Translations under genes and position numbers: made by a program
Shown here: piece by piece, positions 30,927 to 53,539 of the stretch
Layout: every line of letters begins with the position of its first letter
Position numbering within the stretch: position 1 is the first letter of the stretch
DNA from: Nitrososphaeria archaeon
GTDB taxonomy: Archaea > Thermoproteota > Nitrososphaeria > JACIWG01
Length of the DNA: 64,000 nt
Assembly: GCA_963752255.1 (NCBI GenBank)
Contig: CAVVXT010000005.1
Coordinates: 42,168-106,167 of the forward strand
Direction of reading: 5' to 3'
The notes under the pieces: model-generated
Databases searched by the model: none
What the model saw: only the letters and a program-made list of their open reading frames with translations
Told to the model about the DNA's origin: nothing

Positions 30927-31000
30927 GGGCCTGTAGCTCAGCCAGGTAGAGCATCGGACTTTTAATCCGAGGGTCGAGGGTCCGAATCCCCCCAGGCCCG
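30927..31000 (+). tRNA. tRNA-Lys(UUU)
   Basis: Acceptor stem GGGCCTG/CAGGCCC, D-arm GCTC/GAGC, anticodon arm TCGGA-CT-TTT-AA-TCCGA, T-arm GAGGG-TCCGAAT-CCCCC; no intron. Confidence 0.95.
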
Positions 31001-31003
31001 CCT
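30983..31003 (+). repeat. att core (attL), 21 bp, at the tRNA 3' end
   Basis: CGAATCCCCCCAGGCCCGCCT, identical to 53519-53539. Confidence 0.92.
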
Positions 31004-31058
31004 TAATTATTAAGGGTTTATTAACACGATTTGGTATCCAATATGGTGGTGTGGGGAG

Positions 31059-32459
31059 TTGGTTAGGAGGAGTCCCTATCTGGGGCTTTTTGATGATGTG
31101 GAAGTGAGGAGGTGGTTTGAGAATCTGGAACGGGGCAGTCCCATAACTTCACGAGTGTATAGGAGGAGGCTGGGCTTTTTCTGCGGGCATTATGGTGTTA
31201 CGCCGAAGGAGCTGGCATCGAAGGATGTTAGGGAGATTGAGAATATGATCCAGGACTTCTTTTCCTTCTTGGAAGGGAAGGGTAGGGCCCCGGGTCTCCT
31301 GTTGAGCTATAAGAAGGCTGTTAGGTCGTGGTGTGAGTGGAGCGGTAAGCTTCTTCAGAGGAGGATCAAGGTCAAGGATTCGGGCAGGACACCCACATTA
31401 GAGGGTGAAGTAATACCTACACAGGAGCAGCTACGCCAGACACTTTATTCGGATAGGACGCCGATCAGGACGAGGGTTGTAATCGCGCTCATGGCTTTTT
31501 CGGGGCTAAGGTTTCAGAGCATGGGCAACTTTGACGGCTCTGACGGTCTAAAGGTTGGCGATATGCCTGAACTTGTTGTCGAGGACGGTAGGGTGACGCT
31601 TAAAAGAATCCCAGCCGAGATAATAGTGAGACCTAACCTGAACAAGGCTAGGCACAGATATGTAACCTTCTTGAACGAAGAAGGCTGTAGGCTCGTCGAG
31701 GAGTATCTGAATAGGCGCTTAAATTCTGGTGAGAAGATAGATCAGGACACGCCAGTGATAGCTACATCGAAGTTTTATGACGCAAGAGGTAAGCCTAGCA
31801 GCAAACCGAGTAACGGGAGTGTGAAGTCTATGACGAGCGACAAGATAAGGGATAATGTTAGAGAAGCTTTAAGAGACTTAGGATTCAGGTGGCGGCCCTA
31901 CATATTCAGAAGCTTCTTCGACACACAGCTCATGCTCGCTGATAGCAGGGGGAAGATCAGCCACGCCTACCAGCAGTTCTGGATGGGACATAAAGGTGAC
32001 ATGGAGGCGGTATACACTACAAATAAGGGTAGATTGTCTGAGGACGTTGTCAAGGATATGAGAGACGCGTACATGAGATGTGATGAATACCTCTCCATAA
32101 AGCCAAGTGCAAGACAGGAGGATCCTGAGCTTACAACCATAAGAACTATGGTGGAAAGCGGCGTTTTGGACCTATCTAAGTCTACTGTAAGAAACTATCT
32201 GATTCAGAAGCTGGGTATACAGGACATGGAGGTTAAGGTTGCTAGTATGAAGGAGTCAGGATATGCCGAAGATGACGCCAACGTTAGAGTGATCTGTGGT
32301 GAGCTGGGCATCGAGCCGATGAAGATCGAAGCATTCAAACCCAAGAATAACGACGATCCAAAGAAGGTCGTATGCGAAGATGAACTGGAGCGTTATCTTG
32401 CGGAGGGATGGGACGTCCAAACTATGCTGCCGAGCGGGAAGATATTGATCAGAAAGTAA
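31059..32459 (+). CDS. int: Tyrosine recombinase/integrase 1
   Basis: SGLR, KARH, YIFR, FWMGH, catalytic Y in AVYTT; next to the att/tRNA. Confidence 0.9.
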   Translation: MVRRSPYLGLFDDVEVRRWFENLERGSPITSRVYRRRLGFFCGHYGVTPKELASKDVREIENMIQDFFSFLEGKGRAPGLLLSYKKAVRSWCEWSGKLLQRRIKVKDSGRTPTLEGEVIPTQEQLRQTLYSDRTPIRTRVVIALMAFSGLRFQSMGNFDGSDGLKVGDMPELVVEDGRVTLKRIPAEIIVRPNLNKARHRYVTFLNEEGCRLVEEYLNRRLNSGEKIDQDTPVIATSKFYDARGKPSSKPSNGSVKSMTSDKIRDNVREALRDLGFRWRPYIFRSFFDTQLMLADSRGKISHAYQQFWMGHKGDMEAVYTTNKGRLSEDVVKDMRDAYMRCDEYLSIKPSARQEDPELTTIRTMVESGVLDLSKSTVRNYLIQKLGIQDMEVKVASMKESGYAEDDANVRVICGELGIEPMKIEAFKPKNNDDPKKVVCEDELERYLAEGWDVQTMLPSGKILIRK

Positions 32460-32483
32460 GTTGAGTGAACACTTGAGTTCTAA

Positions 32484-32864
32484 TTAGAGAAGCTTCGAGA
32501 GCCTATCAACCAGCGATTCTTTGCGTCTATACAGTAGAGATTCTATCAGGCTCTTTTGCATATTTATATATTGAACAGCTGGCTCAAGTACCTCCTTCGT
32601 AATATTATAATCGATGAACTCGTGCCTTAATGTTTGAAGCGCGTCCTCCAGCTCCTCGTCATAGATCAGTATTACGTTACCTCTTACTTCACCGTGTTTG
32701 TCTGAAGCTAGACTTGGAGCCCACTTCAGCTTCAGATCGTGGCCCATGCCAACCTTAGCTTTGATCCGCTCAAGCTCCTCCATCAACTTAGACTCCACAG
32801 AATTTTTGTCATCGACACTCTTTCGATTTCGTTTCTGAAGGGCTTGGGAGGACATAGTAATCAT
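32484..32864 (-). CDS. Element-associated protein with degenerate zincin-like motif (HEFID)
   Basis: HGEVRG...IYDE...TLRHEFIDY; decayed paralog at 60623-60993. Confidence 0.7.
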   Translation of the reverse strand: MITMSSQALQKRNRKSVDDKNSVESKLMEELERIKAKVGMGHDLKLKWAPSLASDKHGEVRGNVILIYDEELEDALQTLRHEFIDYNITKEVLEPAVQYINMQKSLIESLLYRRKESLVDRLSKLL

Positions 32865-33328
32865 CTATCTCGCAAACTAGTATTTTCTAGGGCTGTTGGA
32901 TCATTCCTTTGATCTGTTGATGGTTCGATGTTTTTTTTCCAATACCTGCAAGGTGTGAACGATCCTGTTATAGAATAAATTGCTTCCTTGGTTTGTTCTT
33001 CATCATGGATGCCGGATAAATGTATTAATTCATGTATGGTGGTTTTGTTTATTTCGTCTATGTAGATATCTATTACATTGTCATGATCCAAAGAGCAATC
33101 GTAAACGTGACCATCCCCATCTGCCGTTTTTATTATAGTCTCTTTAGCGTTTTTACAATGCCAGCAACATTCACAAAGGTCTATGTCAGAGATGTTTCTA
33201 TAACTAATCAAGCTTTCCAAAAAAACAAAGGCTTCCCCTGTCTCTCCAATTGCACAACCACTACAATACCTAATATCATGGATTTTGCCATGTGGAAATT
33301 CCGATTTAAGAGTAAACTCTAGAGTCAT
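32861..33328 (-). CDS. Cys-rich putative zinc metalloprotease (HExxH)
   Basis: TIHELIHLSGIHDEE, CSGC, CWHC; 4-bp overlaps with both neighbours. Confidence 0.55.
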   Translation of the reverse strand: MTLEFTLKSEFPHGKIHDIRYCSGCAIGETGEAFVFLESLISYRNISDIDLCECCWHCKNAKETIIKTADGDGHVYDCSLDHDNVIDIYIDEINKTTIHELIHLSGIHDEEQTKEAIYSITGSFTPCRYWKKNIEPSTDQRNDPTALENTSLRDR

Positions 33329-35007
33329 TGGCCGTCATCCTTTTTTTTATCGTCGCCCTTGCTTGTCGGTGGATTCGGTGGTCCGGTGGATATTTCTATG
33401 GGTTCGGATTCCAAGCATAACATATGTGTGGGGACTATTGCTTGATCTGGGTGCTTGGTGCAAGTGTTATCTTTATAGAACTTGCAACTATTAGAGCAAC
33501 ATTTATCGGTTTTGGGTAAAGTATGGGACACGGTATCGGACACCACAATGTCCGATGTCCCATGCACTTGTTTCGTATCATCGGAAAGTATGGGACAAAC
33601 TGGCTTTGCGGTATATGTACCTGCTTGATTTTGTTTATCGTTTGGCATATATACCAGAAAACCGTTTTGTCCCATACTTTTGTTAAAGTCGGAAATCATT
33701 TCATTTTGCAAATTTTGAGTATCGGACACGGGACAAAGCGGTGTCCCATCCGGTGTCCCAAACTTTTTGGAATCTAACTTTAAACTGCTAACCTTAGATA
33801 GTATGTCAGTAATTGCATATTGCAACTTGTGGAATTTTGCTTTACCCTTCTCCTCTGGGTATTCGATGACGTAACCTCTTTCTCTCATCAAGTCGAGATG
33901 TCTTAGAATAGTTTTTTCTGAAGTTTTAAGGTCCTTCGCTATATCAACCCTTTCCTTCTTGTGAATCTCTGCACCCTCATTTTCTATCTTCTTGCTCTGA
34001 AGACATGCTAGCAGGTTCCTTATTCTGCAGTCTATATCAAGTGTCATTGTCGTTAAAGGTTCTAGTGCGATCTCCAGAGCCTTGTTGAACATTTCTGGGG
34101 TTGCCATGAGAACCTTCTTTTCTCCGATCATTTTGTAAGGAAGCTTTCTTTGATACAGCAGGGAAGTAAGCTTTATGAGTGCAAGGATTTTATCAAAGTC
34201 TCCCCGTGTTCTTAAGTGTGAAGTATTAAGGATCTTCGTTATTGCATTTGGATATGGAACTATCACATAGCAGGGTTCTACCTTTTCGATAACTTGCTCC
34301 ATAACTTTGAATGCAAAATCGTAGTCCGTAATTTTTCTCTTACCAAGATAAACCTCTGAACGCTGTTTTTCTTTCTCCTCTTTAAATGCCAAAATATTTT
34401 TTGTCTGCGCTTCACTCTCATCCGGGTTAACTGCCCACGCTCTCCTATCAAACTGGGAATCAACCATAAACCTTGTTGTTGTAGTGATAACGGTCATTGG
34501 GGGGATCTTGTTCTGCTCGGTTGTGAAGTGTCTGCTTTCTTTATCTCTTATGGTGTATTCAACTAAATATCCACCGTCTTCGGTGCTGAGAAACTTTATA
34601 GTTGAAACCCCCTGCTTCTCTTCGTCAACATAACCCATTTCTTTAATATAAAGAATGTCATAACCGCTTAAGTCGGTGTAGTCTAAGGCATGTTCTGAGA
34701 ATCGACCGACTTCCTTTGTTTTGAAAGCCTTACTTAGTCTTGCCAAAAGACTTTTACCTGCACCTGGTTGACCCATTAAAAGAAGAATCTGGTACAGTTG
34801 AGGGTCAATTTTTCCGCTCTTTCCTGACAATAAGAGAACAAAAATTAACTGTTTGTTCTGATCTTCCCCAGTAATAACTTTATCAAGACATTCTTTTTTC
34901 AAAGAATCAAGTGGGTCATTTGAGTTTAAGATTTCATCTGCTTTTTTAGTAGCTTCTTCTAATATCTGACTTACATCGTCGATTTCTTCAATGTCTTTGT
35001 CAGTCAA
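33325..35007 (-). CDS. MCM-like AAA+ ATPase/replicative helicase with C-terminal winged HTH
   Basis: ITGEDQNKQLIFVLLLSG, Walker A GQPGAGKS, QFDRR, LRTRGDFDKIL, DIAKDLKTSEKTILRHLDLMRERGYV. Confidence 0.7.
   Translation of the reverse strand: MTDKDIEEIDDVSQILEEATKKADEILNSNDPLDSLKKECLDKVITGEDQNKQLIFVLLLSGKSGKIDPQLYQILLLMGQPGAGKSLLARLSKAFKTKEVGRFSEHALDYTDLSGYDILYIKEMGYVDEEKQGVSTIKFLSTEDGGYLVEYTIRDKESRHFTTEQNKIPPMTVITTTTRFMVDSQFDRRAWAVNPDESEAQTKNILAFKEEKEKQRSEVYLGKRKITDYDFAFKVMEQVIEKVEPCYVIVPYPNAITKILNTSHLRTRGDFDKILALIKLTSLLYQRKLPYKMIGEKKVLMATPEMFNKALEIALEPLTTMTLDIDCRIRNLLACLQSKKIENEGAEIHKKERVDIAKDLKTSEKTILRHLDLMRERGYVIEYPEEKGKAKFHKLQYAITDILSKVSSLKLDSKKFGTPDGTPLCPVSDTQNLQNEMISDFNKSMGQNGFLVYMPNDKQNQAGTYTAKPVCPILSDDTKQVHGTSDIVVSDTVSHTLPKTDKCCSNSCKFYKDNTCTKHPDQAIVPTHMLCLESEPIEISTGPPNPPTSKGDDKKKDDGQ
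33518..33760. repeat. Iteron-like repeat cluster; putative replication origin inside the helicase gene
   Basis: AAAGTATGGGACA at 33518 and 33585, inverted at 33668; GTATCGGACAC at 33533 and 33719; CGGTGTCCCA at 33739 and 33751. Confidence 0.7.
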
Positions 35008-35440
35008 GGTTTCGCAACCTCCAAAGAATATATGCTTTCATCTCTCCTTCATTCATAGCTGAGTTTGAGTAGTAGCACCCTGAATGTTCAAAAATATAAT
35101 ACATAAGATTCTTGATTTGCTTATTCGTGAAGTTTGCTTGAAATTTCGATATTAAGTCCTTCATAGGGGTCATCACGAAGTATGCGTAACTTCCCTTCAT
35201 ACGAATAAGACATATTACAACTTCACGTTTCAGACCTAAGTAGTTATACCCAGAAAGGTGCAGTGCATTTTTTAGGGGCAATTGCCGAGCTTCCTTAACG
35301 ATTGGGCAAGCTATCGAAATCTCCTTATCCTTCAGAGCTTCCTTTATGACGGGGCAACCTATAGGAGAATCATTACCAAAAATGTTACTCAAGTTCACTT
35401 CACTCTTTTTCTTCCTATTACATTGTCTTTGAAAAGCCAT
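35000..35440 (-). CDS. Hypothetical protein
   Basis: ORF overlapping the helicase start; internal repeat IGCPVIKEA/IACPIVKEA. Confidence 0.5.
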   Translation of the reverse strand: MAFQRQCNRKKKSEVNLSNIFGNDSPIGCPVIKEALKDKEISIACPIVKEARQLPLKNALHLSGYNYLGLKREVVICLIRMKGSYAYFVMTPMKDLISKFQANFTNKQIKNLMYYIFEHSGCYYSNSAMNEGEMKAYILWRLRNLD

Positions 35441-35769
35441 AGAAAAAATTCTTGTCTCCTCATTTTTCCGTTATGATCTTGGAGTTCTTTGAGAAGTACT
35501 AGGTATTCAGGGTTAGAACTTGGATGGCATAGTTCATAAACTCCATGTGGGCCAGTGGCAAAAATCCAAACTAAGCTTTCCTTTTTTTGCTCGACTTTCT
35601 CTATGAGAGATAGTGCATCTTGGAAGTTTTTAATGCGATCATCAATGAGCTTGATGAGGTTATAGTTCTCAATAAGAATGTTTTTGATGGCATAAAGCTC
35701 AGTGATTCTATGTTTAAGTTCCTCTGGAGAAGGCAAATCTTTATTAGAAACTTTGTTAGAACTACTCAT
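35395..35769 (-). CDS. Hypothetical protein
   Basis: ORF in the overlapping leftward operon; coiled-coil N-terminal half. Confidence 0.55.
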   Translation of the reverse strand: MSSSNKVSNKDLPSPEELKHRITELYAIKNILIENYNLIKLIDDRIKNFQDALSLIEKVEQKKESLVWIFATGPHGVYELCHPSSNPEYLVLLKELQDHNGKMRRQEFFLWLFKDNVIGRKRVK

Positions 35770-36130: not shown

Positions 36131-36940
36131 GTGCAATCCCCAAAATATGATTCAAAAATTTGGAAGGTATTAGAGCTATGTTCAACTCCTAAACGGTTTT
36201 CTGAATTAAAGAAAAACCTCGATATAACCGATGAGGGTTTAAGCAAAAACCTTCAAAGTCTAATTAAGCAAGGTTTAATCAGAAAAACTTTAGAAGGATT
36301 GTATGAAGCTACAGATAAAGGAAAGGAAGTTGTTGAGAAAGAAGATAATGCTGAGACTGCTAGAAGGGATACAACCGTAAATTTGAAGCTGAGAAGGTTA
36401 GAAAAGACGGGGATAATGTTGGAATTGTTGAAAGGTTTTATATCTCAATACATATATAGTACTTTTGAACCTCCTGATTCTTGTGAAACGTTTGGGTTAG
36501 AAGGAAAGAAGCTGTCAGAAGCTCAAGAACGTAATGAGAAAGAAGGCCATAGAATTGAAGCTCTCAGAAATTTAGCTCCTCAGATAACGGATAAGATTAG
36601 GCTTTTGCACATGATAATTAATGAATATGATTATAGTTATAGGGAAATTTATCCCGATATATATGAGGCAGTTAGCATGATTTTAAAGTATGGTGAACTT
36701 GATCCTAGCAAGGTCTATATTGGTGAGATAGAAAAATGGTGGAAGAAAAAAGATGATATGAAAGAATATTGTCGTATAATACTTTCACATATAATACCTT
36801 CAGATATTTGGCCAGATGGGACTAAACAATTCTTTGATAAAACGGAAGCGTTTGTTCAATCAAAGAGCTATCAGATATTACCTGATGAGCTAAAAGAACC
36901 TTTTTGGCGTCCTGCATCTCTAACTTCATCAACTATGTAA
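36131..36940 (+). CDS. Winged-HTH transcriptional regulator with unknown C-terminal domain
   Basis: PKRFSELKKNLDITDEGLSKNLQSLIKQGLI...YEATDKG. Confidence 0.75.
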   Translation: MQSPKYDSKIWKVLELCSTPKRFSELKKNLDITDEGLSKNLQSLIKQGLIRKTLEGLYEATDKGKEVVEKEDNAETARRDTTVNLKLRRLEKTGIMLELLKGFISQYIYSTFEPPDSCETFGLEGKKLSEAQERNEKEGHRIEALRNLAPQITDKIRLLHMIINEYDYSYREIYPDIYEAVSMILKYGELDPSKVYIGEIEKWWKKKDDMKEYCRIILSHIIPSDIWPDGTKQFFDKTEAFVQSKSYQILPDELKEPFWRPASLTSSTM

Positions 36941-37111: not shown

Positions 37112-37672
37112 TTGAATAGGATAATTTTTAATCGTCTTAGGTTAAAGAGAGGGGAAGGCAGGTTTACGAATGGCAAAGGATGGATGGAGATAGAGAGACC
37201 TTTGGCGGTTGATGTTATAACTAAGAAAAGTGCCGTGCAGGAGACTAAGGAGGAAGTTAAGGCCGTACAGGGCGAGGTATGCGACATGGTTAACGGTGAG
37301 GATAAGAAGCAGCTTTGTAAGATCGTCCTTGAAAAGCACTCTAACATGGAGATCTCAACGAAGGAGGCTGAGGAACAGTTGAGCGACCTAACGGGGGAGG
37401 ACATCAAGCTGGTGGAGGAACCGGACTGGAAGCTCCTTGGACAGGACCGGGATAAGTTAGAGTCGTGGGCGACAGCCGTATGCATGACCTACGAAGTAGA
37501 GGATGAAAGCAAGATCAATGCCTGCGTCGACGTGATCGATAACATCGTCAAAGGGCAGGAGACCGTCGATAGTGGTTCGCAGAAGATTGGGAAACTTATG
37601 AGGGAGGATCCTGAGGAGGTCGCTAAAACCCTCATGGTCACGGCCCCTAATGCTGAAACAGAAAATAAATAA
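37112..37672 (+). CDS. Hypothetical acidic protein with two internal Cys-pair repeats
   Basis: VCDMV...LCKIV and VCMTY...ACVDV repeats; GC-richer codon use than flanks. Confidence 0.55.
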   Translation: MNRIIFNRLRLKRGEGRFTNGKGWMEIERPLAVDVITKKSAVQETKEEVKAVQGEVCDMVNGEDKKQLCKIVLEKHSNMEISTKEAEEQLSDLTGEDIKLVEEPDWKLLGQDRDKLESWATAVCMTYEVEDESKINACVDVIDNIVKGQETVDSGSQKIGKLMREDPEEVAKTLMVTAPNAETENK

Positions 37673-37841: not shown

Positions 37842-38060
37842 TTAAAGAGCGCCTTTCCTGTACAGGTCTGACTTTAAGTTCTTTATTTCCGTTAAGGTAG
37901 CGTTTATGTTCTGCTGTATCTTATCCTGGTTGTCGCACACCACCTTAAACTTGTCGTCCTGGCTGTCTTTAAAGGACCTGAGCATGTTCTTTTCCTCGTT
38001 CAACGCCGCTATGATCAGGTACTGCGCTTCCCTATTGGACAGCTTCCCCTTTGCGATCAT
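37842..38060 (-). CDS. Small coiled-coil hypothetical protein
   Basis: ORF track; heptad-like pattern. Confidence 0.45.
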   Translation of the reverse strand: MIAKGKLSNREAQYLIIAALNEEKNMLRSFKDSQDDKFKVVCDNQDKIQQNINATLTEIKNLKSDLYRKGAL

Positions 38061-38440
38061 CTTCTTTATCAGTTAACGGATTCGGGTGCAACTTTACCGG
38101 ATTGGTAAACAACACGGATCCAAAATTGATTGAACAGAAAAATAATATAAAAAGTTGGTTCTGTTCAATGCGTTTTTTTGCAAATCGAATATTCCAACAT
38201 GTTGGCGATCGTTCAACTTGATATCGGTTTGCATGAGAGCGTTATGATAGTCGATTGAACACAGGGGCATCTGTCTGAGCCGTTGTGCGGAATGATCTGG
38301 AATTTGCGATTTTGTTTTTTGTTGATTGAACAACGCTTGGCTCAACGCAGTCTAACATTTTCTAAAACGTTTTTTTATCAAGACCTCTACTTTACCAGTT
38401 TGGTGAACACTTATATAACCAAATCAGTTAAGTACCAAAA

Positions 38441-38590
38441 AAGAGTACACATCCTACCGTAAAGCTGTTGAAACTGATGAGCTGCCTTGTGATGTTAGGC
38501 AGCGGGGAAGGGGACATCGCATCGGATTCATTTGTAGGATCTGGAACCTCGGCGTTGGCGTGTAAGATTTTGAACAGGCACTACTGCAAC
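38441..38590 (+). pseudogene. C-terminal remnant of an N4/N6 (beta-class) DNA methyltransferase
   Basis: HPTVKLLKLMSCLV...GDIASDSFVGSGTSALACKILNRHY, a decayed HPT.KP...DPFxGSGT motif. Confidence 0.75.
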
Positions 38591-38901: not shown

Positions 38902-39099
38902 TTATTCCTGTCTTACGATTTTCGCTCTTTCGTGGAGGTTGCGCTGGATTTCTTCTATTCTCAGCCTGACCGCTTCTTTGACGAACTCGCTTCTTGAAGT
39001 GTAGCCTAGTTCAGCGTGTTTTATGATCTCGTCTGCCATGTTAAGTAGATCCTCTGGCAGCTGTACTGTTTTCCAGCCGCGTTTTTGAGCATGTTCCAT
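38902..39099 (-). CDS. CopG/NikR-type RHH regulator
   Basis: TVQLPEDLL...GYTSRSEFVKEAVR. Confidence 0.85.
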   Translation of the reverse strand: MEHAQKRGWKTVQLPEDLLNMADEIIKHAELGYTSRSEFVKEAVRLRIEEIQRNLHERAKIVRQE

Positions 39100-39183: not shown

Positions 39184-39495
39184 ATGAGATATAGGGGTGT
39201 ACAACTTCCAGAAGGTTTAGCGGAAAGGGTTAGACATCTTATTACCGAGCATAAGGAGCTCGGATACGCGAGCGTGAAGGAATTTGTCCAAGATTCCGTG
39301 AGAAGAAGGGTTGAGCAGACAGAAAAACTCATGGAATATGAAATGCATGATATAGGAGAGGCTGCCAAAAATTTTGGCCACCAGTCACTTCAGCAGCGTG
39401 ATAAGGCTTCTCAAGCGGCTTCTAACAGCACTGATGTCCCAAATAATGACAGGCAGGCCAGCTCCTTAAGCCCCACAGAACATTGTGAAATGTGA
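39184..39495 (+). CDS. CopG-type RHH regulator with C-terminal extension
   Basis: GVQLPEGLA...GYASVKEFVQDSVR. Confidence 0.8.
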   Translation: MRYRGVQLPEGLAERVRHLITEHKELGYASVKEFVQDSVRRRVEQTEKLMEYEMHDIGEAAKNFGHQSLQQRDKASQAASNSTDVPNNDRQASSLSPTEHCEM

Positions 39496-42484: not shown

Positions 42485-45368
42485 ATGTCCACGAGATTGG
42501 TTTCTGAACCTGATTTTGTTGCGAATCGTCTTTTACCTAAGTTTAAGGAAGCAGCAGGCGTTCTCAATGTTCTAAGCCAGATTGACTATCATGTTGAGAA
42601 ACGCATTAATGGTGACCGGGCTGACCTGGTTGCAGAGAGGGCTGGTAAGGGCCTTTTTGTGTTAGAGGCCAAGTATAAGAAGAAAGTGGGTAATATAGAA
42701 AGGGATATAGAACCAAGGGATCCAGAAGTCGTCAAACAAGCAGCAAACTATGCGACACTTGGCGGCTATCTGTATTATGGAACATGTAATCTGAAAAGAA
42801 TAGTTCTTTTTCAAATGAAGCCTGGTGTCAAAGCATTTGAAAGTGAAGTAGCCTCCTTCGATTTTGATGAAAACCCAAAGTGGGCAGAGGATGTTCTAAA
42901 AATTGCCTTAGGTCTTGTTCCTGTCAAGGCTAAAGCGTTAGACGATTCGCTTGTAAGTGCTCTGCATGAAGCTTTCACAGACCTTTACATAGAATTTCTA
43001 TCTTCGTTAAGAGAAAGATTAAAGAATGAAGTGTTCAAATCCAGATTTGAAGATTGGTTTGGAAATCAAGGAATTGAATATGGCGAGGAAAATGTTAGGA
43101 AGGTTGCAGAAGAAACTACATATCTACAGATAAACAAATTACTTTTTTATTATGTCGTAAAGACAATTTATCCTGAAAGACTAAAGACCCTTGTTATAAA
43201 TGAGAATGATGATGTCTACGAAGTTCTTAATGGGTACTATGATGATGTGAAGAAAATAGATTATGCCCCTATATATCAAAATGATGTTATAAGTGAAATA
43301 CCTTTCACAGTAAGGACAAAAGAAAGGTTTAGAACTCTTGTAGATACTCTAAGTGAATACGATTTTACAAAGATGGAAAGTGACTTTCTTGGGCGAGTTT
43401 ATGAAAAACTGATTCCTCCACAGGAAAGGAAAAGGTTGGGCCAATTTTATACACCTCCTGAAATAGTTGATCTTATAGCAAAACTAACTATAATGGATAA
43501 AGAGGCAAAAGTTCTTGATCCAGCATGTGGTTCAGGCTCGTTTCTCGTTAGAGCATATCATAGATTAAGAGAACTAAATGGAATGCCAAGAGAAATATCT
43601 GGTCCTCTAACAGAAGAATTTCACAAAAGACTCATTGATCAAGTCTATGGTATAGACATAAACCAATTTCCAGCACACTTATCAGTTATAAATCTGGTTA
43701 TACAAAATCCAAAGGCCAAGATAGATACCGTAAATGTAGTTGTTAAAGATTTCTTTGATGTCAGGCCACGCCAGGTAACTTTCACAGGCTTCGACAGTAT
43801 GACAGCTGAAGGTGAAAAGACTATTATAAAAATGCCTTATACATTTGATGTTATAGTTGCTAATCCCCCGTATATACGCCAAGAACTGCTTGGGGATAAA
43901 GAGAAGGAGAAAATATTTAGTTTGATAGAGAAGGAATTTAAGGACAAAGTTTTCATAGGCAAGGCAGGAAGATCAGGGGCTATCTCATTAGATAGAACAA
44001 GTGATATCTACATCTTTTTCTATATTCATTCTATAAACTTCCTCAACAAAGGAGGAAAGCTCGGTTTCATATCTTCAAACAAATGGCTTGAAGTGGGATA
44101 CGGCGAATCATTTCAGGAATTTCTACTCCAAAACGTGAAAATATCCTTTATAATCGAATTTGACAGAGCCGTTTTCCCTGACGCTGAAGTAAATACGACG
44201 GTGACCATCCTTCAAAAGGAACCAGATTCCACGCAAAGGAACAACAACGTTGTTAGATTTGTTAGATTAAAGAAAAGAATGGACGTAACAGAATTGCAGG
44301 AACTATTAGAATTAGAGAAAGACATCGAGAACAGAAATGTGAGGCTTACAACCATTCAACAAAGATACCTTAATCCTGGCAAGTGGAATACATATCTCCG
44401 AGCACCTGTAGTATTCAAGAAGATCATTGAAAATACTAAAGTGCAATCTCTATCGGTAATCGCAGACGTTTTTAGGGGACCAACTACAGGCTACAATGAC
44501 TACTTTATTCTGTCAAAGGAAAAGGTAAAAGAATGGAATATAGAGCCAGAATTTTTGGTTCCTTGCATTTCATCACCTAAAAAAGTTAAAGGTTTAATCA
44601 TAGATCTTAAAGACATTACAGAATATTTTTTTGTATGTAGCAAACCGAAAGATGAACTTAAAGAAACAAATGCACTAAAATATGTAGAATTTGGCGAGCA
44701 TTTTGAAGTAGATGTAACACGTGGTTCGAAAAAAGGGAGAAAAAGACTACCTCAACTTGAAACTATTAAATCTCGCCAAATCTGGTATAATCTAAACAAG
44801 CCAAAGAATACACCAATACTTTTCCAATACATGATAGATGAAAAATCAAGAGCCTTCTTGGAATAAAGGAGGAGTGCATGCCCCAAACATCATGCATTAT
44901 GTGATACCTAAAAACTTGGGAGATGTTTTACCACTATTAGGCTATTTCAATTCATGCGTAGGCTCACTAATGGTCGAGTTATATGGCCGTTCATATGGCG
45001 GAGGAGTTCTTAAAATAGAAGTTTACGAACTCAAGGGCCTTCCAACAATAGATCCTACCTGCCTTAAAAAAGAAGAAAAAGCAAAAATAGGTAACGCCTT
45101 TTTAAAATTAGCAGAAGCGATAAATAAAAGGATTAAAGTAGAGAAAGAGTTAGAATCAGCAAAGTCAAAAACTGGAAAAGAGAAAGGCCTATTTGAAGGC
45201 GAAGCCAAACAAAGACTTGAATTAGCAATTGGAATTGAAAAGAAAAGTCAAAAGGAACTTGATAACCTTGTTTATAATGTCCTTGGGCTCTCAGAAAAGG
45301 AAAGATTACAGGTAGAAGAAGGGCTTACAGAATTGCAGGAACTACGAAAGTCACGAACTCAAGTATAA
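42485..45368 (+). CDS. Type IIG (Eco57I-like) restriction-modification fusion, frameshifted near 44858
   Basis: N-terminal RAD...LEAK...QAANYA nuclease, GQFYTP, VLDPACGSG, NPPY; C-terminal GRSYGGGVLKIEVYE in the next frame. Confidence 0.85.
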
Positions 45369-45407
45369 ATCTAACTTCTCCCATTGCCTTTTTTGTGGCT
45401 TTTCCTA

Positions 45408-46261
45408 TGATCTCAGAAATTGGACATGTTGTGTTTGCCCACGTAATAGCTAATCCTCCCTCATTGCAAAGGCATAGCAGTATAGATCTGACTCTTACTA
45501 ATTCAAAGGGACGTGTAAGGCTGGTTAAGGTGGGAGAAGGTTTACAGACTAAATATTCTTTGACCGTTACCGATCCATCGTCATTAGGTCTACCTTCCTT
45601 TGGACGGCGTAATGTTGAACTGTTTATAGGCGACGTTGTCCTCGCCTGTAATCTTGCCCTGAGGCAGACGGCTCTGTCAACAATTAAATATGCTCCGAGC
45701 CAAGCTGACGTCAAATATCAGCGGCCAAGAAAAGTTACAGTAGAAAATAGACCAGAAGGACAGCATATTACATTTACTGATACACATCACCGGAACGAGT
45801 CGGTCTATTTTGCGCAACCATTTTCTGAGGCGATAGATGAGGATCAAATACTGTCAAATTTAATGTTGGTAAACAAGACGGACAGGCACAGGTTATCGAC
45901 AGACCATAAAATGGAATTAGTTAATCTTGTGAAGTCACTTGGAGAATTTGAAAATGCTATGTCCGTCTTTGATAGGTTAGCGATTTTCAAGCATCTCTTT
46001 AACTCCCTTGAATTAGCAACCAACTGGGATGGAAAGGATCGTAGGGGTAAAACTTTTGACGTTGAAGCGGCAAATCTCTCGAGCGTTCCAGAGTCGGATA
46101 TATCTGTTTGGAGAGATTTCTATAATAGGACAAAGCACGTTGACAGTACATCAGACGATACAACAAAATTTGTGAAAGGTATAGAAAACTTGCCCGATAT
46201 TCTTATGCCTCTGAGGTCAGCCACAGAAGCAGGTATAATAAAACGGTTAAACTCTATATGA
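45408..46261 (+). CDS. Putative ApeA/MauJ-like HEPN-domain protein
   Basis: beta-rich N-terminus, FKHLFNSLE helix, degenerate RDFYNRTKH; defence-cluster context. Confidence 0.45.
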
Positions 46262-46501
46262 GAGAAAGAGTACATGAGGATATGTTAAGACTGAGAGTAT
46301 GAAGCATGAGCTGGATGATATAAAAGATTTATTGTTTAGACTGCTTGCAGACAAGAGCTCTTAACTTTTTTTATACATAAGATCTTTCTCAAAACTCTTG
46401 AATAATCTATGATTTATGATACAATATCTCTTTAATATGAACAAAAGAGTTAATACACAGACTTTGATATGAAAATTATAGAGGAAACATTAGGTGGTAC
46501 C

Positions 46502-46627
46502 ATGTCATTTGAGAACTATTCTCTGGTAAAAGAGGGTGAACTACCTTTTAGGGTTCGCAAAGATGTAATAAAACATCTAAGCATTGGTTTATATAGTAAT
46601 TTTGCACGTGCTATAAAAGAACTTGTT
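46502..46627 (+). pseudogene. 5' stub of a GHKL/MORC-type ATPase
   Basis: VIKHLSIGLYSNFARAIKELV parallels VLESLGINLYSNVPAVLSEVV of the 51408 ORF, then similarity ends. Confidence 0.65.
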
Positions 46628-46777
46628 AAGTATCCAACGTCGCTACTAATACTTTTTAGTTACATTGTTTTTTTCATTAGTATTTATGATTTTTTTATAT
46701 CTATATTATCAGGTGGTCCAACAGCTAGGTTTAGAAGGGAATAAATGGATTGTATTGATCAAGAAGGGTAGCAAAGA

Positions 46778-47323
46778 ATGTCGTCGAATTTAATTGACCT
46801 TTCAACTGTTCTGAGCATTGTCGCAGTTATCCTTGGTCTACTAGTCATATTGCCCTACTTCATAAACAGATTATGCTATAAACCCAATTTGAGTATCTGT
46901 GTTCACTGTTGGGATGGTTCACAAGATACAATTCCAAGGAGTGGAGGAGACATCCAGATTTCGATACATGCAAAGAACAAGCAAAGAGTAGTAGTGGAAA
47001 GCGCGTCGGTCAGTATTCCACAGGCATTCAAGTCTCAAAATCTCCTGCCATTTTTAGTTGGAGGAGATAAAATCCCTCCACACACAAGTGGTGCCCCAAC
47101 ACACCTGATTGCGTCACCATGGCCGCAGACCATAGGAGGTCCAGACAGGCTTGTTGGATCCGCTACGTTCTGGTGCTGCGTAAAGGACGAAAATGCATCT
47201 GAATTGGTAATGAACGTCACAATCCGTGCTCATATCTATCAAGGCGACTTACCCACTCTCATAGATATGCACACCCCACAGACTAGAGAATACCCCTTTT
47301 CACAAACCTTTCGGATTCAATAA
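46778..47323 (+). CDS. Hypothetical protein, N-terminal TM anchor plus beta-rich domain
   Basis: ORF track; hydrophobic N-terminus followed by KPNL. Confidence 0.55.
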   Translation: MSSNLIDLSTVLSIVAVILGLLVILPYFINRLCYKPNLSICVHCWDGSQDTIPRSGGDIQISIHAKNKQRVVVESASVSIPQAFKSQNLLPFLVGGDKIPPHTSGAPTHLIASPWPQTIGGPDRLVGSATFWCCVKDENASELVMNVTIRAHIYQGDLPTLIDMHTPQTREYPFSQTFRIQ

Positions 47324-47511
47324 GTTAAGAAGTGATTTGTCCATCCCGACATTTGCAACAGGGAGAATTTTGTTAGGCTATCCCCCCAAGATGCAACAGC
47401 CCTGAATCCTAGATACAAAAATTGACAGGAATTATCCATAAAAATTTGACAGAGCCGAACAGGTTGTTAAACTTTAAGAAAAAGTTCAGATAAGTAACGG
47501 AACAGAATTGC

Positions 47512-47895
47512 ATGAATGTACAATCAGGTGGATTAGTCGCACAATTTATTGCAGGTCTGATAGCTGGAATTTTGGTACTTGTAGGTGAGTTAGAAGTTTT
47601 TGCTGCTTCTTTAATAGCATATGCCTTTTCAAAAGCTATGCAAACATTGCCAACTACTACATTCTCAATATATATTTTTCTATTCATAATTGTGGACATC
47701 ATGCAAAACTTTCTTGTCGGATTTGCGTCTCCAACAGCGTTCGCAATCGGTTTTCTCTTTGGTGATTTATTGCTCTTACTATTTATTGCTGTTCCATTAT
47801 GGGCAATAGTGCCATCGATAGTTATAGGTATGATAGGTGCGCTCATTACCGTTGTAGCTGGATTAATCTTCAGAAGAATTGGCACGCGTACTTAA
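47512..47895 (+). CDS. Hypothetical membrane protein
   Basis: Four hydrophobic segments. Confidence 0.55.
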   Translation: MNVQSGGLVAQFIAGLIAGILVLVGELEVFAASLIAYAFSKAMQTLPTTTFSIYIFLFIIVDIMQNFLVGFASPTAFAIGFLFGDLLLLLFIAVPLWAIVPSIVIGMIGALITVVAGLIFRRIGTRT

Positions 47896-48480
47896 TAACT
47901 CCTAAAGCAGGAGCGTCTTTTCAAAGTTGATAGGTTTTTTAAATCTTGCTTTAGAGGGAAGATCCCCCTCCAGTTTAAGGCCTCGACAGCAGGGTGTAAA
48001 CTGCGAAATAGTGCAGGTTAAGGGTTTAAAGAGGGTTTAAACCGCTTGTCTGCCTGAGCTTGGAGTTATTTTAACAGGATTTCCACCTTAATTAATCGGG
48101 GAATCGAACAAGGTAAACTTGATCCACTAGTTAACTATCAATGCCTTTCCTTCAACTCCTTATACTAATGAGGTAATATCGATTGTTGTTGGTGGGTTAT
48201 TGGGAAAGTTCGATATATAGCCATATTAATTTTCTATGTATTATGCAATGTTTTAATCAAAGTGCGTTTACTCATCAAATGCTAAAGGGTGAACCGTTCC
48301 TCAAAGACTATTTACTACAGTATTCGTGGGTAACACAGATTTATGTCTACTATTATAGAGATGTATACCGCAAAAATATGAACGAGCTTGAGATAGATAG
48401 GCTTTCGAAGAAAACCATTCATCTATAATCTTATAAACCAGCATAGAGCAAGAATCTTTAGGCGTGTGCATCACCAATTG

Positions 48481-49524
48481 GTGAATCCAGAACATCTCAA
48501 GGTCGTGCTCGGAGGATGCAGTTCTATTGCAGAATGGAAGAAAATCCATCCAGACGAGAAACTAGATCTTGCTAACGTCAAACTTCCCTCAGCTGACCTT
48601 TATGAAGCTGATCTTTCTTATGCTGATCTTTCTTACGCTTATCTTTCTCTTGCTGATCTTTCTGTTGCTAATCTTACCGATGCTAATCTTTCCCACGCTG
48701 ATCTTTCTGTTGCTAATCTTACCGATGCTAATCTTTCCCACGCTGATCTTACCGATGCTGACCTTTCTGTTGCTAATCTTTCTTATGCTAATCTTTCGCA
48801 AGCTGTCCTTAAAGGAGCATCACTTTCAGAAACTAGTCTTGTTAGGACCAGTCTGGACGACGCGAATTTTTCTGAGGCAGTAATGGATGGTGCAATCTTG
48901 GCAGGTATCAATCTAGCCAAAGCTGATGGGCTTAAGGCAATTATTCACGGTGGGCCAAGTAGTGTAGGAGTAGACACAATGATAGAGTCTTTCCGCTCCG
49001 CAGGTAATCGTTTTACACCTGAATTGGAAGCCTTCTTTCTTGGTACGGGCGTGCCGAAAGAGCTTCTTGATAGTATTCCCAAAATCATAGGCGAAGTAAA
49101 GTATTGCCCTACTTATATTGCGTATGGGCAACCAGATGTTAATTTTGCAAGGAGATTGAAGTCTGACTTAACAACGAATGATGTCTCTTGCTGGCTATAT
49201 GACACCGACAAAACAGCTGGTGAGAGAACTTGGAAGGAAATTAGACATGAAATGCAAAGGGCTGAAAAGGTGATCGTACTCTGTTCTGCTAAAGCGTTAG
49301 TTAGAGATGGTTTGCTTAAAGAGATAGAGGAGCAGATAGACAGAGATCGGGACAAGCTAATTGCTGTTTCTTTAGACGACTTGTGGAAACAAGATGGGTT
49401 CCATGTAACGAGGGGAAGCAGGAACCTGAAGCCTGACCTTATGAATAAGAACTGGGTTGACTTTATTCACAACTCGACTTATGACCATTCCCTAAATGAA
49501 TTATTAAAGGGACTAAGAAGATAA
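48481..49524 (+). CDS. Pentapeptide-repeat plus TIR-domain protein
   Basis: A(D/N)LSx repeats, then YIAYGQPDVNFARRLKSDL...VSCW...KVIVLCS...LLKEIE...LIAVSLDD (TIR_2 pattern). Confidence 0.8.
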   Translation: MNPEHLKVVLGGCSSIAEWKKIHPDEKLDLANVKLPSADLYEADLSYADLSYAYLSLADLSVANLTDANLSHADLSVANLTDANLSHADLTDADLSVANLSYANLSQAVLKGASLSETSLVRTSLDDANFSEAVMDGAILAGINLAKADGLKAIIHGGPSSVGVDTMIESFRSAGNRFTPELEAFFLGTGVPKELLDSIPKIIGEVKYCPTYIAYGQPDVNFARRLKSDLTTNDVSCWLYDTDKTAGERTWKEIRHEMQRAEKVIVLCSAKALVRDGLLKEIEEQIDRDRDKLIAVSLDDLWKQDGFHVTRGSRNLKPDLMNKNWVDFIHNSTYDHSLNELLKGLRR

Positions 49525-49962
49525 ATAGTGAACAGAGATGTTTGCATATCAGGGACTCGAACCCATTTAAGTATTAGGATTAAGAAGTTTGAATACATCA
49601 TAAATCATAATATATTTTCAAATTGTTATTTTTTAGAATGTTTTGGAATGTCGTCAGATTAAAAGAAAGAATTCGGTCATAAAGCAAACATCGTAAACTT
49701 CTCCTCGTGCATAAATTCTGAGTTTTTCTCTGTCCATAAACGATAGATTTCTTTTCCTTTTTCTTCTTGGTCCTTTGGAACCAGTCCTTTTGTGTTTTTA
49801 ACAAGCAGTAAATTGGGTGTGACAACCAACGAAGTTGTTGCGCTTGAACGATAAATGATAACCAAATAAAAACATATTTAAACTATGTTAGTTGATTAAA
49901 TCATAACGTGGTAGAATTTAATGAATGATAGTAGAGGATTTTCTTCCGCTAACCCACTTATA

Positions 49963-51424
49963 ATGACGGAAAAACCCTCAAAAGAGATTTCAGACAGAAT
50001 GAGGAAGGTCAGAAGCAAGGGAACTAAGATCGAAAAGACGACGGAACTTTTGCTAAAACAGATTTTCCTCGAATATGAAAAACAACCAAAAATGATCGGA
50101 CACCCAGACTTCATATTAAAAACCGAAAAAATCGCTATTTTTTGTGACAGCGCTTTCTGGCATGGTCGGAGAACCAAGAAACAACATTTCAAACGTAATC
50201 GGCAATTTTGGGAACATAAGATCAAAGAAAACCGATTGAGAGACAGAAGGAACAACCAGACCCTATCGAAACTAGGTTGGAATGTATTGCGTTTTTGGGA
50301 TGAGGATATTCTCAAAAAACCAAGTTACGTTACTAGAACGATATTAAGACAAGTAAGTCCCCCTCCAGAAAAACGTCTAGCCGCAGTAGAATTGTTTTGT
50401 GGGGTTGGTGGAATGGCTCATGGTTTCTTCTTAGAAGGGATTGATGTAGTTGCAGGATTCGATGTAGACAAAACTTGCAAGTATGCTTTTGAGAAAAATA
50501 ATTCTACCACATTCATAGAGAAAAACGTTAGCATGTTAGGCGGCCAAGAAATCAAAAGGTTATACCCCAAAGAATCTGTTAAAATACTTGTGGGCTGTGC
50601 ACCGTGCCAACCGTTTTCCACCTACACAAACGCGAAGAAAGGAAACTCCGATAAATGGAAACTCCTTTACGAGTTCTCTCGAATAGTAAACGAAGTCCAT
50701 CCAGACATAGTTTCAATGGAAAATGTTCCCGGACTAATCTCATACGGAAAAGGTAAATTCTTTCAGGATTTCTTAGAAAATCTTAGGCAACAAGGTTATC
50801 ATGTATGGCATCACGTCATAAATTGCCCAGAATATGGAATTCCTCAAAGAAGACGGAGACTAGTTTTGCTGGCCTCTTTATTCGGTGACATAAACATAAT
50901 CCAAAAAACACACCCTGCTGGGAAATACTCTGACAGTACGTGATGCAATCGGAGATTTAGAGCCTATATCCGCAGGAAGCTCAAGCATCAAAGACCCATT
51001 ACACAGAGCTCGAAATCTTACCCCTAAGAACATGCTTAGAATAAGGTCAACTCCCCAAGGTGGAGACTGGAGTTCTTGGCCAAAAGAATTGATGCTTGAA
51101 TGCCACAAAAAAGACAGTGGAAAATCCTTTGGCAGTGTATACGGAAGAATGAGTTGGGATGAGCTCAGTCCAACCATTACTACTGAATTTATCGGTCTTG
51201 GCAACGGCAGATTCGGTCATCCTGTGCAGGATCGTGCAATATCTCTAAGGGAAGCTGCGCTTTTACAAACTTTTCCAGTGTACTATGACTTTCTTGATCC
51301 TAATGCGGCATTCTGTTCAAGAAGAATCGCTCAGCATATAGGCAATGCAGTTCCGGTTAGGTTGGGACAAGTGATAGCGGAAAGCATTAAACAACATGTG
51401 AGGGGATTTGATGGAAAACAGTGA
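49963..51424 (+). CDS. Vsr endonuclease fused to a C5-cytosine DNA methyltransferase, frameshifted near 50928
   Basis: Vsr: PDF...IFCDSAFWHG...GWNVLRFW; MTase: ELFCGVGG, APCQ, ENV, PQRRRR, REAALLQTFP, IGNAVP. Confidence 0.85.
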
Positions 51425-53387
51425 AAAATACACACTTACGATTAGCTTGAACGTTCTTGAAAGCTTGGGTATAAACCTGTATAGTAACGTTCCAGCAGTT
51501 CTCTCAGAAGTCGTTGCAAATTCTTGGGATGCAGACGCAGAAGAAGTAAGAATAACGTTGAATACTCAACTTGGCGAAATTACCATCGAAGACAACGGAA
51601 AAGGTATGACCGCACGAGATATGAACGAAAAATATTTGAAAGTGGGTTATCACAGACGGGAATACGAAGAAACGCTTACTCCAAAACATATGCGTCACGT
51701 CTTTGGAAGAAAGGGAATAGGAAAACTTGCTTTATTTTCTATTGCAAACAAAGTGGAGGTACAAAGCGTAAAAGAAAATAACGAAGTTTTGGAAAAAAGT
51801 GGTTTCATCATGGACGCTCACGATATAGAGGAGCATATCAAACGGGAAAGTGGCCAAAACCCTGACAAAAATCGATCATCTGATTATCATCCTATTGCAG
51901 TTGATCCAGAGAAGATCACCTTTGATAAGGGAACTAAAATCATTCTGAAGGAATTGAAGAAAGAAATATTCAATCTCGGCAGCGCTTTGAAAAGAAGGTT
52001 GGCAAGACGCTTCAGTATAATAGGAGAAGAACATGATTTCGCGGTTTTCGTTGATGGTCAACAAATCACGGTAGATGATAGAGATTATTTGAAAAAGCTT
52101 CAATACATCTGGTTAATAGGCGGAGAAAATGAGGATCTTCTCAAAGATTGTAAAAACTTGATACAACATGGAAAAATTGATGGGTTAATTGACGAAAAAG
52201 AAGATTACAAAGTAACTGGATGGGTTGGCACTTTAGACGAACAAAAAAGCGTAGAAGAAGGTAGCAATACCGTCGTTGTCTATGCTTGGGGAAAACTCAT
52301 TCATGAGGATATTTTGAAAGACGTAAAAGAAGGAGGCGTGTTTTCTAAGTATCTCATTGGCGAACTTCGTGCAGACTTTCTTGATTACGATGGAAAACCA
52401 GACATCTCAACCACTGGTCGTCAAATGGTCAAGGAAGATGATGTTCGCTTTATTATACTCAAGAATTTCTTTAGGGAAAAAATTCTATCTGCAATCCATT
52501 CAAAATGGGAACCTTGGCGCAAAGAAATTGCTGTAAAAAAGGCGCTTGAAAATGAAAAAATCAAAGAATGGTTTGAAACTCTGTCGCCTGATAAGAAAAA
52601 GTTTGCTGAAACCCTTTTTGCCAAGATTGAGTCAATTCCAGTTTCTAATCCCGATAGCAAGAAGGAGCTTTACAAACACGGAATAATTGCGTTCGAAACG
52701 CTAGCTCTCAAAGATAGACTTAGCGTACTTAATGAAATTAAATCAGATAAAGAGTTCCAAGTACTTCAAACAATAATGGGTCAAATTGATTCTCTAGAAG
52801 CGATTCTTTACTCAGATATCGTAAGAGGAAGAATTACCGTTCTTACAAAATTTGCTAGTATCGCAACTAGCGAAAAAGAAAAGATAATTCAAAAATACCT
52901 ATTTGAACATTTATGGTTACTTGATTCTTCATGGGAAAGAGCTAGTACAAACCAGCGGATGGAGGAAACTTTTAAAAAGGAGTTCAAGGCTGTAAAGTTT
53001 ACAGAAGAAGAAAAGAAGGCACGGATCGATATTCGATACAAAACTGCGGCAGGAAAACATATAATAATAGAACTAAAGAAATATGATGCAAAAGTAAGTA
53101 TTTCAGTTCTTTCTAGGCAGGTACAGAAGTATAAACTCATTCTTCAAAGATGTTTGAGAAAAGTATTTTTAAATACGCAGCAACCGCCATTCGAAATAAT
53201 ATGTGTTCTCGGATCTTGCCCAACCCCTCAAGAAGATGATGAAGCTAACCGGAGGTCACTAGGCGTACATAATGCTAGATATGTTACATATGATAGTCTG
53301 ATTAATGATGCGATGGAAGGGTACAAAAGTTACCTTGATAAGGAAAAGGAAGTCGAACGGATAAGAACGCTAATAAAAGATTTATGA
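51408..53387 (+). CDS. GHKL(MORC)-ATPase plus PD-(D/E)xK nuclease, HgiDII/BbrUII-like restriction endonuclease
   Basis: EVVANSWDA, DNGKGM, GRKGIGK, RIDI...IIELK; overlaps the MTase end. Confidence 0.8.
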   Translation: MMENSEKYTLTISLNVLESLGINLYSNVPAVLSEVVANSWDADAEEVRITLNTQLGEITIEDNGKGMTARDMNEKYLKVGYHRREYEETLTPKHMRHVFGRKGIGKLALFSIANKVEVQSVKENNEVLEKSGFIMDAHDIEEHIKRESGQNPDKNRSSDYHPIAVDPEKITFDKGTKIILKELKKEIFNLGSALKRRLARRFSIIGEEHDFAVFVDGQQITVDDRDYLKKLQYIWLIGGENEDLLKDCKNLIQHGKIDGLIDEKEDYKVTGWVGTLDEQKSVEEGSNTVVVYAWGKLIHEDILKDVKEGGVFSKYLIGELRADFLDYDGKPDISTTGRQMVKEDDVRFIILKNFFREKILSAIHSKWEPWRKEIAVKKALENEKIKEWFETLSPDKKKFAETLFAKIESIPVSNPDSKKELYKHGIIAFETLALKDRLSVLNEIKSDKEFQVLQTIMGQIDSLEAILYSDIVRGRITVLTKFASIATSEKEKIIQKYLFEHLWLLDSSWERASTNQRMEETFKKEFKAVKFTEEEKKARIDIRYKTAAGKHIIIELKKYDAKVSISVLSRQVQKYKLILQRCLRKVFLNTQQPPFEIICVLGSCPTPQEDDEANRRSLGVHNARYVTYDSLINDAMEGYKSYLDKEKEVERIRTLIKDL

Positions 53388-53518
53388 TCAATAGTGAACT
53401 ATTTTAATTGGTCTTTTTGTGAGCCCTTTTATCATGGTTCCATGCACAAACTTTTCTCGGCTATAGCGCGCGTAAATCTGAAATATTTACTGGATACTTT
53501 TCACCCAATTAATTAGGA

Positions 53519-53539
53519 CGAATCCCCCCAGGCCCGCCT
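53519..53539 (+). repeat. att core (attR of element 1 and left junction of element 2)
   Basis: Exact copy of the tRNA-Lys 3' sequence 30983-31003. Confidence 0.92.

Follow-up and report, generated by a model that had tools for sequence, protein, structure and literature searches.

What kind of element occupies the 22.5 kb that follow a tRNA-Lys gene on contig C5 of a Nitrososphaeria archaeon, and how might it replicate and spread? The window analysed was the 64,000-nucleotide stretch C5:42168-106167 of this 2.1-Mb, 95%-complete assembly (G000), and positions given without a contig refer to the window. Open reading frames (ORFs) were annotated by Pfam, PHROGs and NCBIfam scans, RNAs by Rfam and tRNA by ARAGORN. 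A genome of the same genus (G001) was compared through its fetched stretches. At a probability of about 0.68, the element is best explained as an integrative plasmid-like 'cryptic integrated element' (CIE) whose family occurs chiefly in Bathyarchaeia and related archaea. It combines an integrase with direct repeats, carries no recognisable signature genes of virions, casposons or conjugation, and is not fixed in relatives. Coordinates are collected in Table 1.

The perfect 21-bp ends, intact tRNA and intact integrase of the original prediction were all verified. The two att cores, one at the end of tRNA-Lys(TTT), form an exact direct repeat and are the sole two exact copies in the assembly; at up to four mismatches there were six further matches, all at tRNA-Arg-type or other tRNA ends and their relics. 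The tRNA was the only match of the Rfam scan. The integrase gene int1 is an open frame unsplit by att, in which R151, K196, Y281-x-x-R284, H311 and Y319 are present, and it shows the R...YxxR...Y pattern of pNOB8-type (type II) integrases (PMC8371274). The imperfect inverted flank described around the attP core was confirmed: TAATTAGG (53510-53517) and CCTTAATTA (31001-31009) are reverse complements bar one base, with three bases of CCTTAATTA lying inside the core. In IMG/VR, the attR sequence had no exact match, and no relative of int1 or of the single helicase was confirmed. None of the 12 host CRISPR spacers matches the element.

The view that the region is an integrative element and not core genome was upheld by its distribution. 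The helicase was present in 11/300 genomes of the class and 0/9 of the family, and no int1 relative was found at tRNA-Lys in the three family genomes with long flanks (G004, G005 and G007); the contigs of G006 and G008 stop too close to the tRNA to be informative. Element DNA matched two of five family genomes, in pieces only. Downstream of this tRNA, G001 has a diverged left arm, then 1.1 kb, then a core remnant of 11 bp, and lastly the arm of a second integrase, int2, without the integrase itself. The right flanks of the site in G000 and G001 are not syntenic.

In the window, int2 begins 55 bp past attR. The 54-bp arm and int2 together have 86-87% DNA identity to copies on contigs C1 of G000 and G001, located there behind a 3' end of tRNA-Arg type. 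What lies to the right of attR is the integrase and left end of an earlier element in a tandem array. The sequence thus shows that the int1 element entered an already occupied tRNA-Lys 3' end by tyrosine-recombinase crossover, in front of the older int2 element. The element had been called complete. The word is right as far as its two ends go, but the element heads an array, and excision would therefore not leave an empty chromosomal site. Tandem arrays at one att site are known among thaumarchaeal integrated elements (PMC6563490). No further Lys core was found beyond attR in the assembly, and a CdvB1/B2-like gene with matches in 4/4 family genomes follows the array (55581); the second element is therefore taken to be a relic of about 2 kb. 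The host is probably a basal member of Nitrososphaeria: NCBI gives this label to a protein identical to one in G001, and the CdvB1/B2-like gene is in accord.

Separately, about 15 of 19 matches to the int2 arm motif lie beside a reversed or partial tRNA-Arg-type end resembling an att relic, several of them at synteny breaks with G001. Sites include 56530-56610 and about 63100 in the window, and many on C2, C12, C14, C17 and C19. The core has an 8-bp palindrome, which might permit int2 to integrate in either orientation and to rearrange the chromosome. A paralogue of the element gene o126 lies outside the array (60626-60922, minus strand), with 89% DNA identity to a copy in an int2-bearing island of G001.

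The element was also predicted to replicate itself. An MCM-like helicase with intact motifs (Rep) and a probable iteron origin support this part; no primase or polymerase was found to complete it. Walker A K85, Walker B E123, R188/R189 and R266/R268 of Rep are invariant in 30/30 aligned relatives. A structure model of residues 1-400 (pLDDT 85) gave the AAA domain of PfMCM as best fold match (Z 17.2, root-mean-square deviation (rmsd) 3.9, 260 residues aligned). Over its full length the model aligned with Cch (Z 10.9, rmsd 8.2, 292 aligned), and more weakly it aligned with SaPIbov1 Rep (Z 7.7, rmsd 8.3). As modelled, Rep has an MCM-type AAA+ fold with a C-terminal winged helix, like the self-loading Cch/Rep2 helicases, and helicase activity is predicted.

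The tail of rep, which is not conserved in the helicase family, holds the mirror-ordered iterons, with a 37-bp inverted repeat (33585-33680) at their centre. The pattern of five plus five was reached by 0/300 shuffles and was the best of 111 windows in the element. Balanced pentamers occurred in 25/80 related rep tails (the other 55 fail) against 1/80 control stretches from the ATPase core. The inverted-repeat score was higher in tail than in core at 77/80 loci, the tails being richer in A and T. In L047/L048, which are one sequence with 55% protein identity to Rep, all ten pentamers are retained in unchanged order and direction, between spacers that have diverged and are 37 bases longer in total. 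The segment 33525-33759 is probably the replication origin. SaPI Reps are helicases that load themselves, with a winged helix that binds between six and twelve penta- or hexamers of opposed orientation immediately beyond rep (PMC9371898), and by analogy the mechanism of Rep and its iterons may be the same.

On the preferred explanation, int1 would excise the element as a circle. The winged helix of Rep would bind the mirror-ordered GGACA/TGTCC iterons in the tail of its own gene, and Rep would load itself as a hexamer, like SaPI Rep and SCCmec Cch. Primase and polymerase would be supplied by the host, and the product of the divergent winged helix-turn-helix (wHTH) gene would repress the rep operon during the integrated state. 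The right half would be exchangeable cargo comprising restriction-modification genes, a TIR protein and a hyaluronan-like polysaccharide pair. Having no transfer machinery of its own, the element would most likely, at a guess, spread as a passenger of other elements or of DNA exchange between hosts.

Searches with Rep gave 156 relatives at E<=1e-30, and 10 of 12 loci in named genomes belonged to Bathyarchaeia. Gene content was counted at 106 helicase loci for neighbouring ORFs and at 92 for integrase and primase, 32 of them at least 10 kb long, with integrase and primase profiles built from the same set of loci. An integrase lay within reach in 41/92 loci (23/32 long ones) and a primase in 59/92 (24/32). 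In the element, three primase profiles built from relatives detected none, and they gave no support to o146 as a hidden primase subunit. pRN1-type replicons encode a primase-polymerase/helicase. Many of the 27 long Rep relatives scanned are likewise fused to Prim-Pol, AEP or PriCT domains, whereas Rep of the element has no primase domain and its ATPase folds like MCM, not like superfamily 3. The closest layout was seen in a Bathyarchaeota genome (L042), with the same order of helicase, o126-like gene, convergent int1-like gene and tRNA, and again no primase detected. Another member, of 11.5 kb, lies between tRNA-Asn repeats (L062), and an 8.2-kb contig (L087, 1-8223) has a 123-base terminal repeat, as from a circle.

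The family also occurs in viruses: L032 has the helicase beside terminase and portal genes, and Rep finds a fold match over the full length in SSV-K1 A460, a fusellovirus protein (TM 0.58). The helicase alone is therefore no mark of a plasmid. In IMG/VR, only 3/99 candidate stretches encode a Rep-family helicase. No match was found among GenBank phages, and among plasmids only eight weak Ralstonia matches (23-27%). No description of this helicase family or of an iteron origin in archaeal integrated elements was found in the literature searched, which included few subscription papers, and the replicon family of the element looks undescribed.

As side observations on these relatives, L087 encodes, besides its Rep-family helicase and a wHTH protein, a secreted protein of 649 aa and a hydrophobic one of 87 aa with two helices, the latter without a PHROG or PDB match; it is possibly a small enveloped or spindle-shaped virus. 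L071 (6449-11267) and L072 (5260-9199) are backbone relatives with a common membrane/surface-protein cluster and are candidate proviruses within the replicon family. At L060 (1069-6400) a related element adjoins cas-like genes and a CRISPR-like array, as judged from ORF starts only.

Scans of the element ORFs with Pfam, PHROGs and NCBIfam gave no match to a terminase, portal, capsid, VirB4 or relaxase, as originally stated. Nor did head, tail, coupling-protein or transfer genes appear among them, in keeping with the earlier view that this is neither an ordinary provirus nor an integrative and conjugative element. The PHROGs scan of 22 element ORFs returned one weak, repeat-driven tail-fibre match only; the same library detected a terminase (E 2e-111) and a portal (3e-66) in a control locus. 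Across the 95%-complete genome no conjugation ATPase reached its threshold: nothing passed the PF19044 cut-off, and PF10412 gave no match. The proposed dependence on a helper or on vesicles is unsupported: no positive evidence for it was found, and the element has no DNA in common with the only tailed prophage of the assembly. This prophage (L142; G000 C3:1-28 kb), a conceivable helper, has a terminase, lies at a contig end, and has bacterial-looking genes and about 50% GC against 40% in the host; judging by its composition and genes, it may be foreign to the host, mis-joined or contaminating.

Several points weigh against the CIE explanation. Counts across the helicase-related loci overstate independence, the loci being redundant. 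The element has no primase although most long related loci do (24/32, as above). Rep matches Cch less well than MCM, and with a high rmsd. Structure models covered Rep residues 1-400 and o124. Both methylase-bearing genes (type IIG and Vsr-C5) are split across frames, and with two stubs and blocks common to relic islands the element has the look of a maybe-decaying patchwork. Such features would also be expected of a composite island that is no longer mobile, in which an old integrative backbone has fused to relic cargo blocks and is decaying in place. The methyltransferase and type IIG stubs, which are real relics, and the two split genes favour this explanation, as do the integrase-free recurrence of the block from o186 to the 150-bp repeat in both genomes of the genus and the state of the site in G001, which retains both arms and 1.1 kb only. 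We consider it unlikely. The att cores are identical, the integrase and helicase motifs intact and the ten iterons kept, and a truly dead methylase next to an intact restriction enzyme would presumably be poorly tolerated. The split genes, moreover, may be assembly errors. Single-base indels were present in 16/71 host orthologues of G000 (counted from the comparison table; the 71 are G001 ORFs of at least 200 aa with a close match in G000, of 126 tried). Split genes of G000 are therefore to be regarded as possible errors; error is as likely as decay for these two, and they were rejected as proof of decay.

A virus satellite like SaPI/PICI or pSSVx, excised and replicated with an active helper and packaged in helper particles, would share the layout of the element: an integrase next to the att end, a divergent regulator, a helicase of the self-loading type with its iterons, and far-end cargo (PMC9371898). 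SaPIbov1 Rep is among the fold matches, and a tailed prophage is present on C3. Such a satellite is nevertheless quite unlikely. PHROGs recognised no small terminase or capsid-remodelling gene, the three profiles found no primase upstream of rep as in SaPI/PICI, the long related loci, inspected gene by gene, show no common packaging module, and the C3 prophage, with no DNA in common with the element, departs from the host in GC and has bacterial-looking genes, as given above. It is very doubtful that the element belongs to a widespread, undescribed archaeal family of SaPI-like satellites, helper-dependent and marked by a self-loading MCM-like helicase, in-gene iterons and a hyaluronan-type capsule pair. 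A provirus of an unrecognised family, with virion proteins among the orphan ORFs, is highly improbable. It would accord with the viral helicase of L032, the SSV-K1 A460 fold match, the membrane-protein clusters of L071, L072 and L087, and the unplaced o186 and 127-aa hydrophobic ORF. But cargo identifiable as defence or glycan genes makes up over half of the element, o146, o155, o186, o72, o181, o288 and the 127-aa protein occur in 0/106 helicase loci, and o124, the sole conserved orphan, models as a long helix with a small domain; the rarity of the helicase in IMG/VR also argues against it. A small doubt attaches to the 127-aa ORF because spindle-shaped proviruses exist in Bathyarchaeia (PMC10848311).

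As an integrative, plasmid-like CIE, the element falls in a class already known. CIEs are integrase-bearing elements without virion or conjugation genes and make up 48/74 thaumarchaeal integrated elements, with a median size of 17 kb; one of them, NitAR2-E2, has a Cch-like helicase (Krupovic et al. 2019, PMC6563490). Shared with them are the tRNA 3'-end target, intact tyrosine integrase, helicase without polymerase, restriction-modification cargo, lack of virion and conjugation genes, short att (21 bp; most CIEs <26 bp) and a size near the median. The host lineage and the integrase and helicase sequences differ, the NitAR2-E2 helicase being compared by description only. In the parts of PMC6563490 covered no origin is described, and its main text has no match to 'glycosyl' and does not mention a hyaluronan-synthase-like pair. 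As with SaPI Rep2, SaPIbov1 Rep and SCCmec Cch (PMC9371898), an MCM-type AAA+ domain with a C-terminal winged helix occurs together with short opposed iterons at the 3' end of rep and with an integrase and divergent regulator in one element. Unlike those systems, the element is hosted by an archaeon, has its iterons inside the open frame and not just after it, lacks a primase gene and gives no sign, in its sequence, of helper-phage packaging. With pNOB8-type integrases and arrays it shares the unsplit gene, the residue pattern and the re-use of one site by two elements; unlike pNOB8 it is not conjugative, and its att is 21 bp, not 40-50 bp (PMC8371274, PMC6563490).

A probable iteron origin that has been mapped, the tandem array and the hyaluronan-synthase-like cargo are of modest added interest. 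The helicase, winged helix and ten mapped iterons nonetheless give a concrete candidate replicon for a cryptic element in archaeal lineages that have no genetic tools, and such replicons have been named as possible vector backbones (PMC6563490). If confirmed, a loader-free archaeal relative of MCM would bear on the evolution of MCM loading, and to find a hyaluronan-type synthase at work in an archaeon would in itself be unexpected.

Table 1. Features of the integrated element and its flanks (window positions)
Feature	Position	Strand	Remarks
tRNA-Lys(TTT), intact	30927..31002	+	integration target; ARAGORN; Rfam RF00005, 67 bits
attL core, 21 bp	30983..31003	+	tRNA 3' end from T-loop
Left arm (P') of element	31004..31045	+	diverged copy after tRNA-Lys in G001
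int1, tyrosine integrase, 466 aa	31059..32459	+	unsplit, R...YxxR...Y (pNOB8/type II); PHROG 1, E 1.3e-8
o126, small conserved element protein	32484..32864	-	HE..D motif
o155, orphan	32861..33328	-	HExxH motif (read from sequence); search returns itself alone
Rep, MCM-like AAA+ helicase, 560 aa	33325..35007	-	C-terminal winged helix; no primase domain
Probable replication origin, 3' tail of rep	33525..33759	.	5 GGACA + 5 TGTCC, mirror order
o146, small protein	35000..35440	-	two relatives, 81% and 65%, from other metagenomes
o124, conserved backbone protein	35395..35769	-	near helicase in 12/106 loci
Winged-helix regulator	36131..36940	+	divergent from rep operon; Pfam HTH_45, HxlR
o186, acidic helical protein	37112..37672	+	genus-level family
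o72, small protein	37842..38060	-	adjoins palindromic repeat
Dispersed mirror-symmetric repeat, ~260 bp	38121..38380	.	six GGCTCAA/TTGAGCC-type sites
N4/N6 DNA methyltransferase stub	38450..38587	+	PF01555, E 3e-8
Two divergent ribbon-helix-helix genes	38902-39099; 39184-39495	-; +	
UDP-glucose dehydrogenase-like	39492..40274	+	N-terminal and central domains only
Processive membrane GT2, hyaluronan synthase/NodC-like, 397 aa	40277..41470	+	GDDR, QQLRW, C-terminal WGTR kept
Membrane protein	41377..42042	+	contig C6 has a paralogous domain (42% identity)
Leader and 5' stub of another type IIG gene	42181..42345	+	intact copy G000 C3:170337-173582
Type IIG restriction-modification gene	42485..45368	+	split into two frames near 44850
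Cargo: o288, o91, o181, 127-aa four-helix membrane protein	45395..47895	+	o288: 87% DNA match in G001
Dispersed repeat, ~150 bp	47970..48126	+	4 copies in this genome, 6 in fetched G001 stretches
Pentapeptide repeat-TIR protein	48466..49524	+	likely defence
Vsr fused to C5 methyltransferase	49921..51424	+	split into two frames near 50930
BbrUII/HgiDII-family restriction enzyme	51408..53387	+	intact, 719 bits vs cut-off 550
attR core, 21 bp	53519..53539	+	
Left arm of second element	53540..53593	+	same arm before near-identical integrases after tRNA-Arg-type ends, G000 C1 and G001 C1
int2, second integrase, 437 aa	53594..54907	+	38% identical to int1; 88-89% to copies at G000 C1, G001 C1

In the polysaccharide pair, the family 2 glycosyltransferase (GT2) had hyaluronan synthases as its best solved matches (PDB 7sp7, which we take to be the chlorovirus enzyme, and 8smm; E 5e-17). 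Among NCBIfam models NodC scored higher, yet far below its cut-off. The processive GT2 motifs, including the acceptor and QxxRW motifs, the C-terminal WGTR loop and an adjacent dehydrogenase gene for UDP-glucuronic acid supply are those of a class I hyaluronan synthase locus and recall the hasA-hasB pairing of hyaluronan synthase with UDP-glucose dehydrogenase. The GT2 is shorter than class I enzymes, and the dehydrogenase lacks the C-terminal domain. From its motifs the product is predicted to be of hyaluronan type; a NodC/chitin-type or other polymer is possible. Relatives of the GT2 were present in 11/400 genomes of the phylum, and the dehydrogenase adjoined in 2/11 (1.5 kb examined). The same pair was seen in two other Thermoproteota genomes (L156:1390-3681 and L157:1316-3503); other synthase relatives have no dehydrogenase gene adjoining.

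The 127-aa membrane protein had no relative in phages, PDB or 400 genomes by sequence searches, which easily miss such proteins, and atlas searches with it and with o186 gave no usable match. The idea that o91 is a stub of the restriction enzyme family found no support.

Of the element ORFs besides rep, only o124 (12 loci), o126 (3) and regulators or methylases recur at the 106 helicase loci. Two of the three o126 relatives are near-identical, and o126 also has relatives at two other places in this genome. The o124 model shows a long helix with a small alpha/beta domain. Coiled coils were its sole matches (Z<=5.7), with none at E<=0.001 among viral models, which is no proof of a new fold. Several relatives likewise have a divergent wHTH gene upstream of their helicase.

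The ~260-bp palindromic repeat adjoins o72, upstream of variable defence cargo. It has eight copies in G000 and 12 in the fetched G001 stretches (on G000 C3, C12 and C19, and in L127, L129-L136, L138 and L013), and none in the eight other genomes of the order. Its neighbour o72 occurs in this genome and G001 and in 0/400 other genomes of the phylum. An alignment of 13 copies, namely that of the window and the 12 of G001, was made, leaving out the other seven of G000. Symmetry persisted despite sequence change, with 20/41 pairs altered on both sides, beyond all 500 shuffles, a figure that relatedness of the copies inflates. The palindrome may serve as a platform for protein binding (res-, par- or origin-like); alternatively, it may form one end of a non-autonomous element. 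It was rejected as the origin of this element because G001, in which no such helicase was found, has 12 copies of it. An 83-aa ORF (38094-38345) was discounted as a gene, being probably an antisense reading of the palindrome.

Palindrome-plus-cargo blocks are closed by the ~150-bp repeat (other G000 copies at C3:93837, C3:169104 and C19:482937). Neither of the two repeats showed unusually good single-strand folding (z -1.7 and -1.0). Since the block of o186, o72, palindrome, cargo and 150-bp repeat recurs within the genus without an integrase and the backbone is widespread, the element is a mosaic in which a replicon of broad distribution is joined to a block specific to the genus. Elsewhere in the assembly, one host CRISPR spacer (G000 C19:49918-49956) matches the archaeon's own contig C17 (22293-22331) at 35/39 bases.

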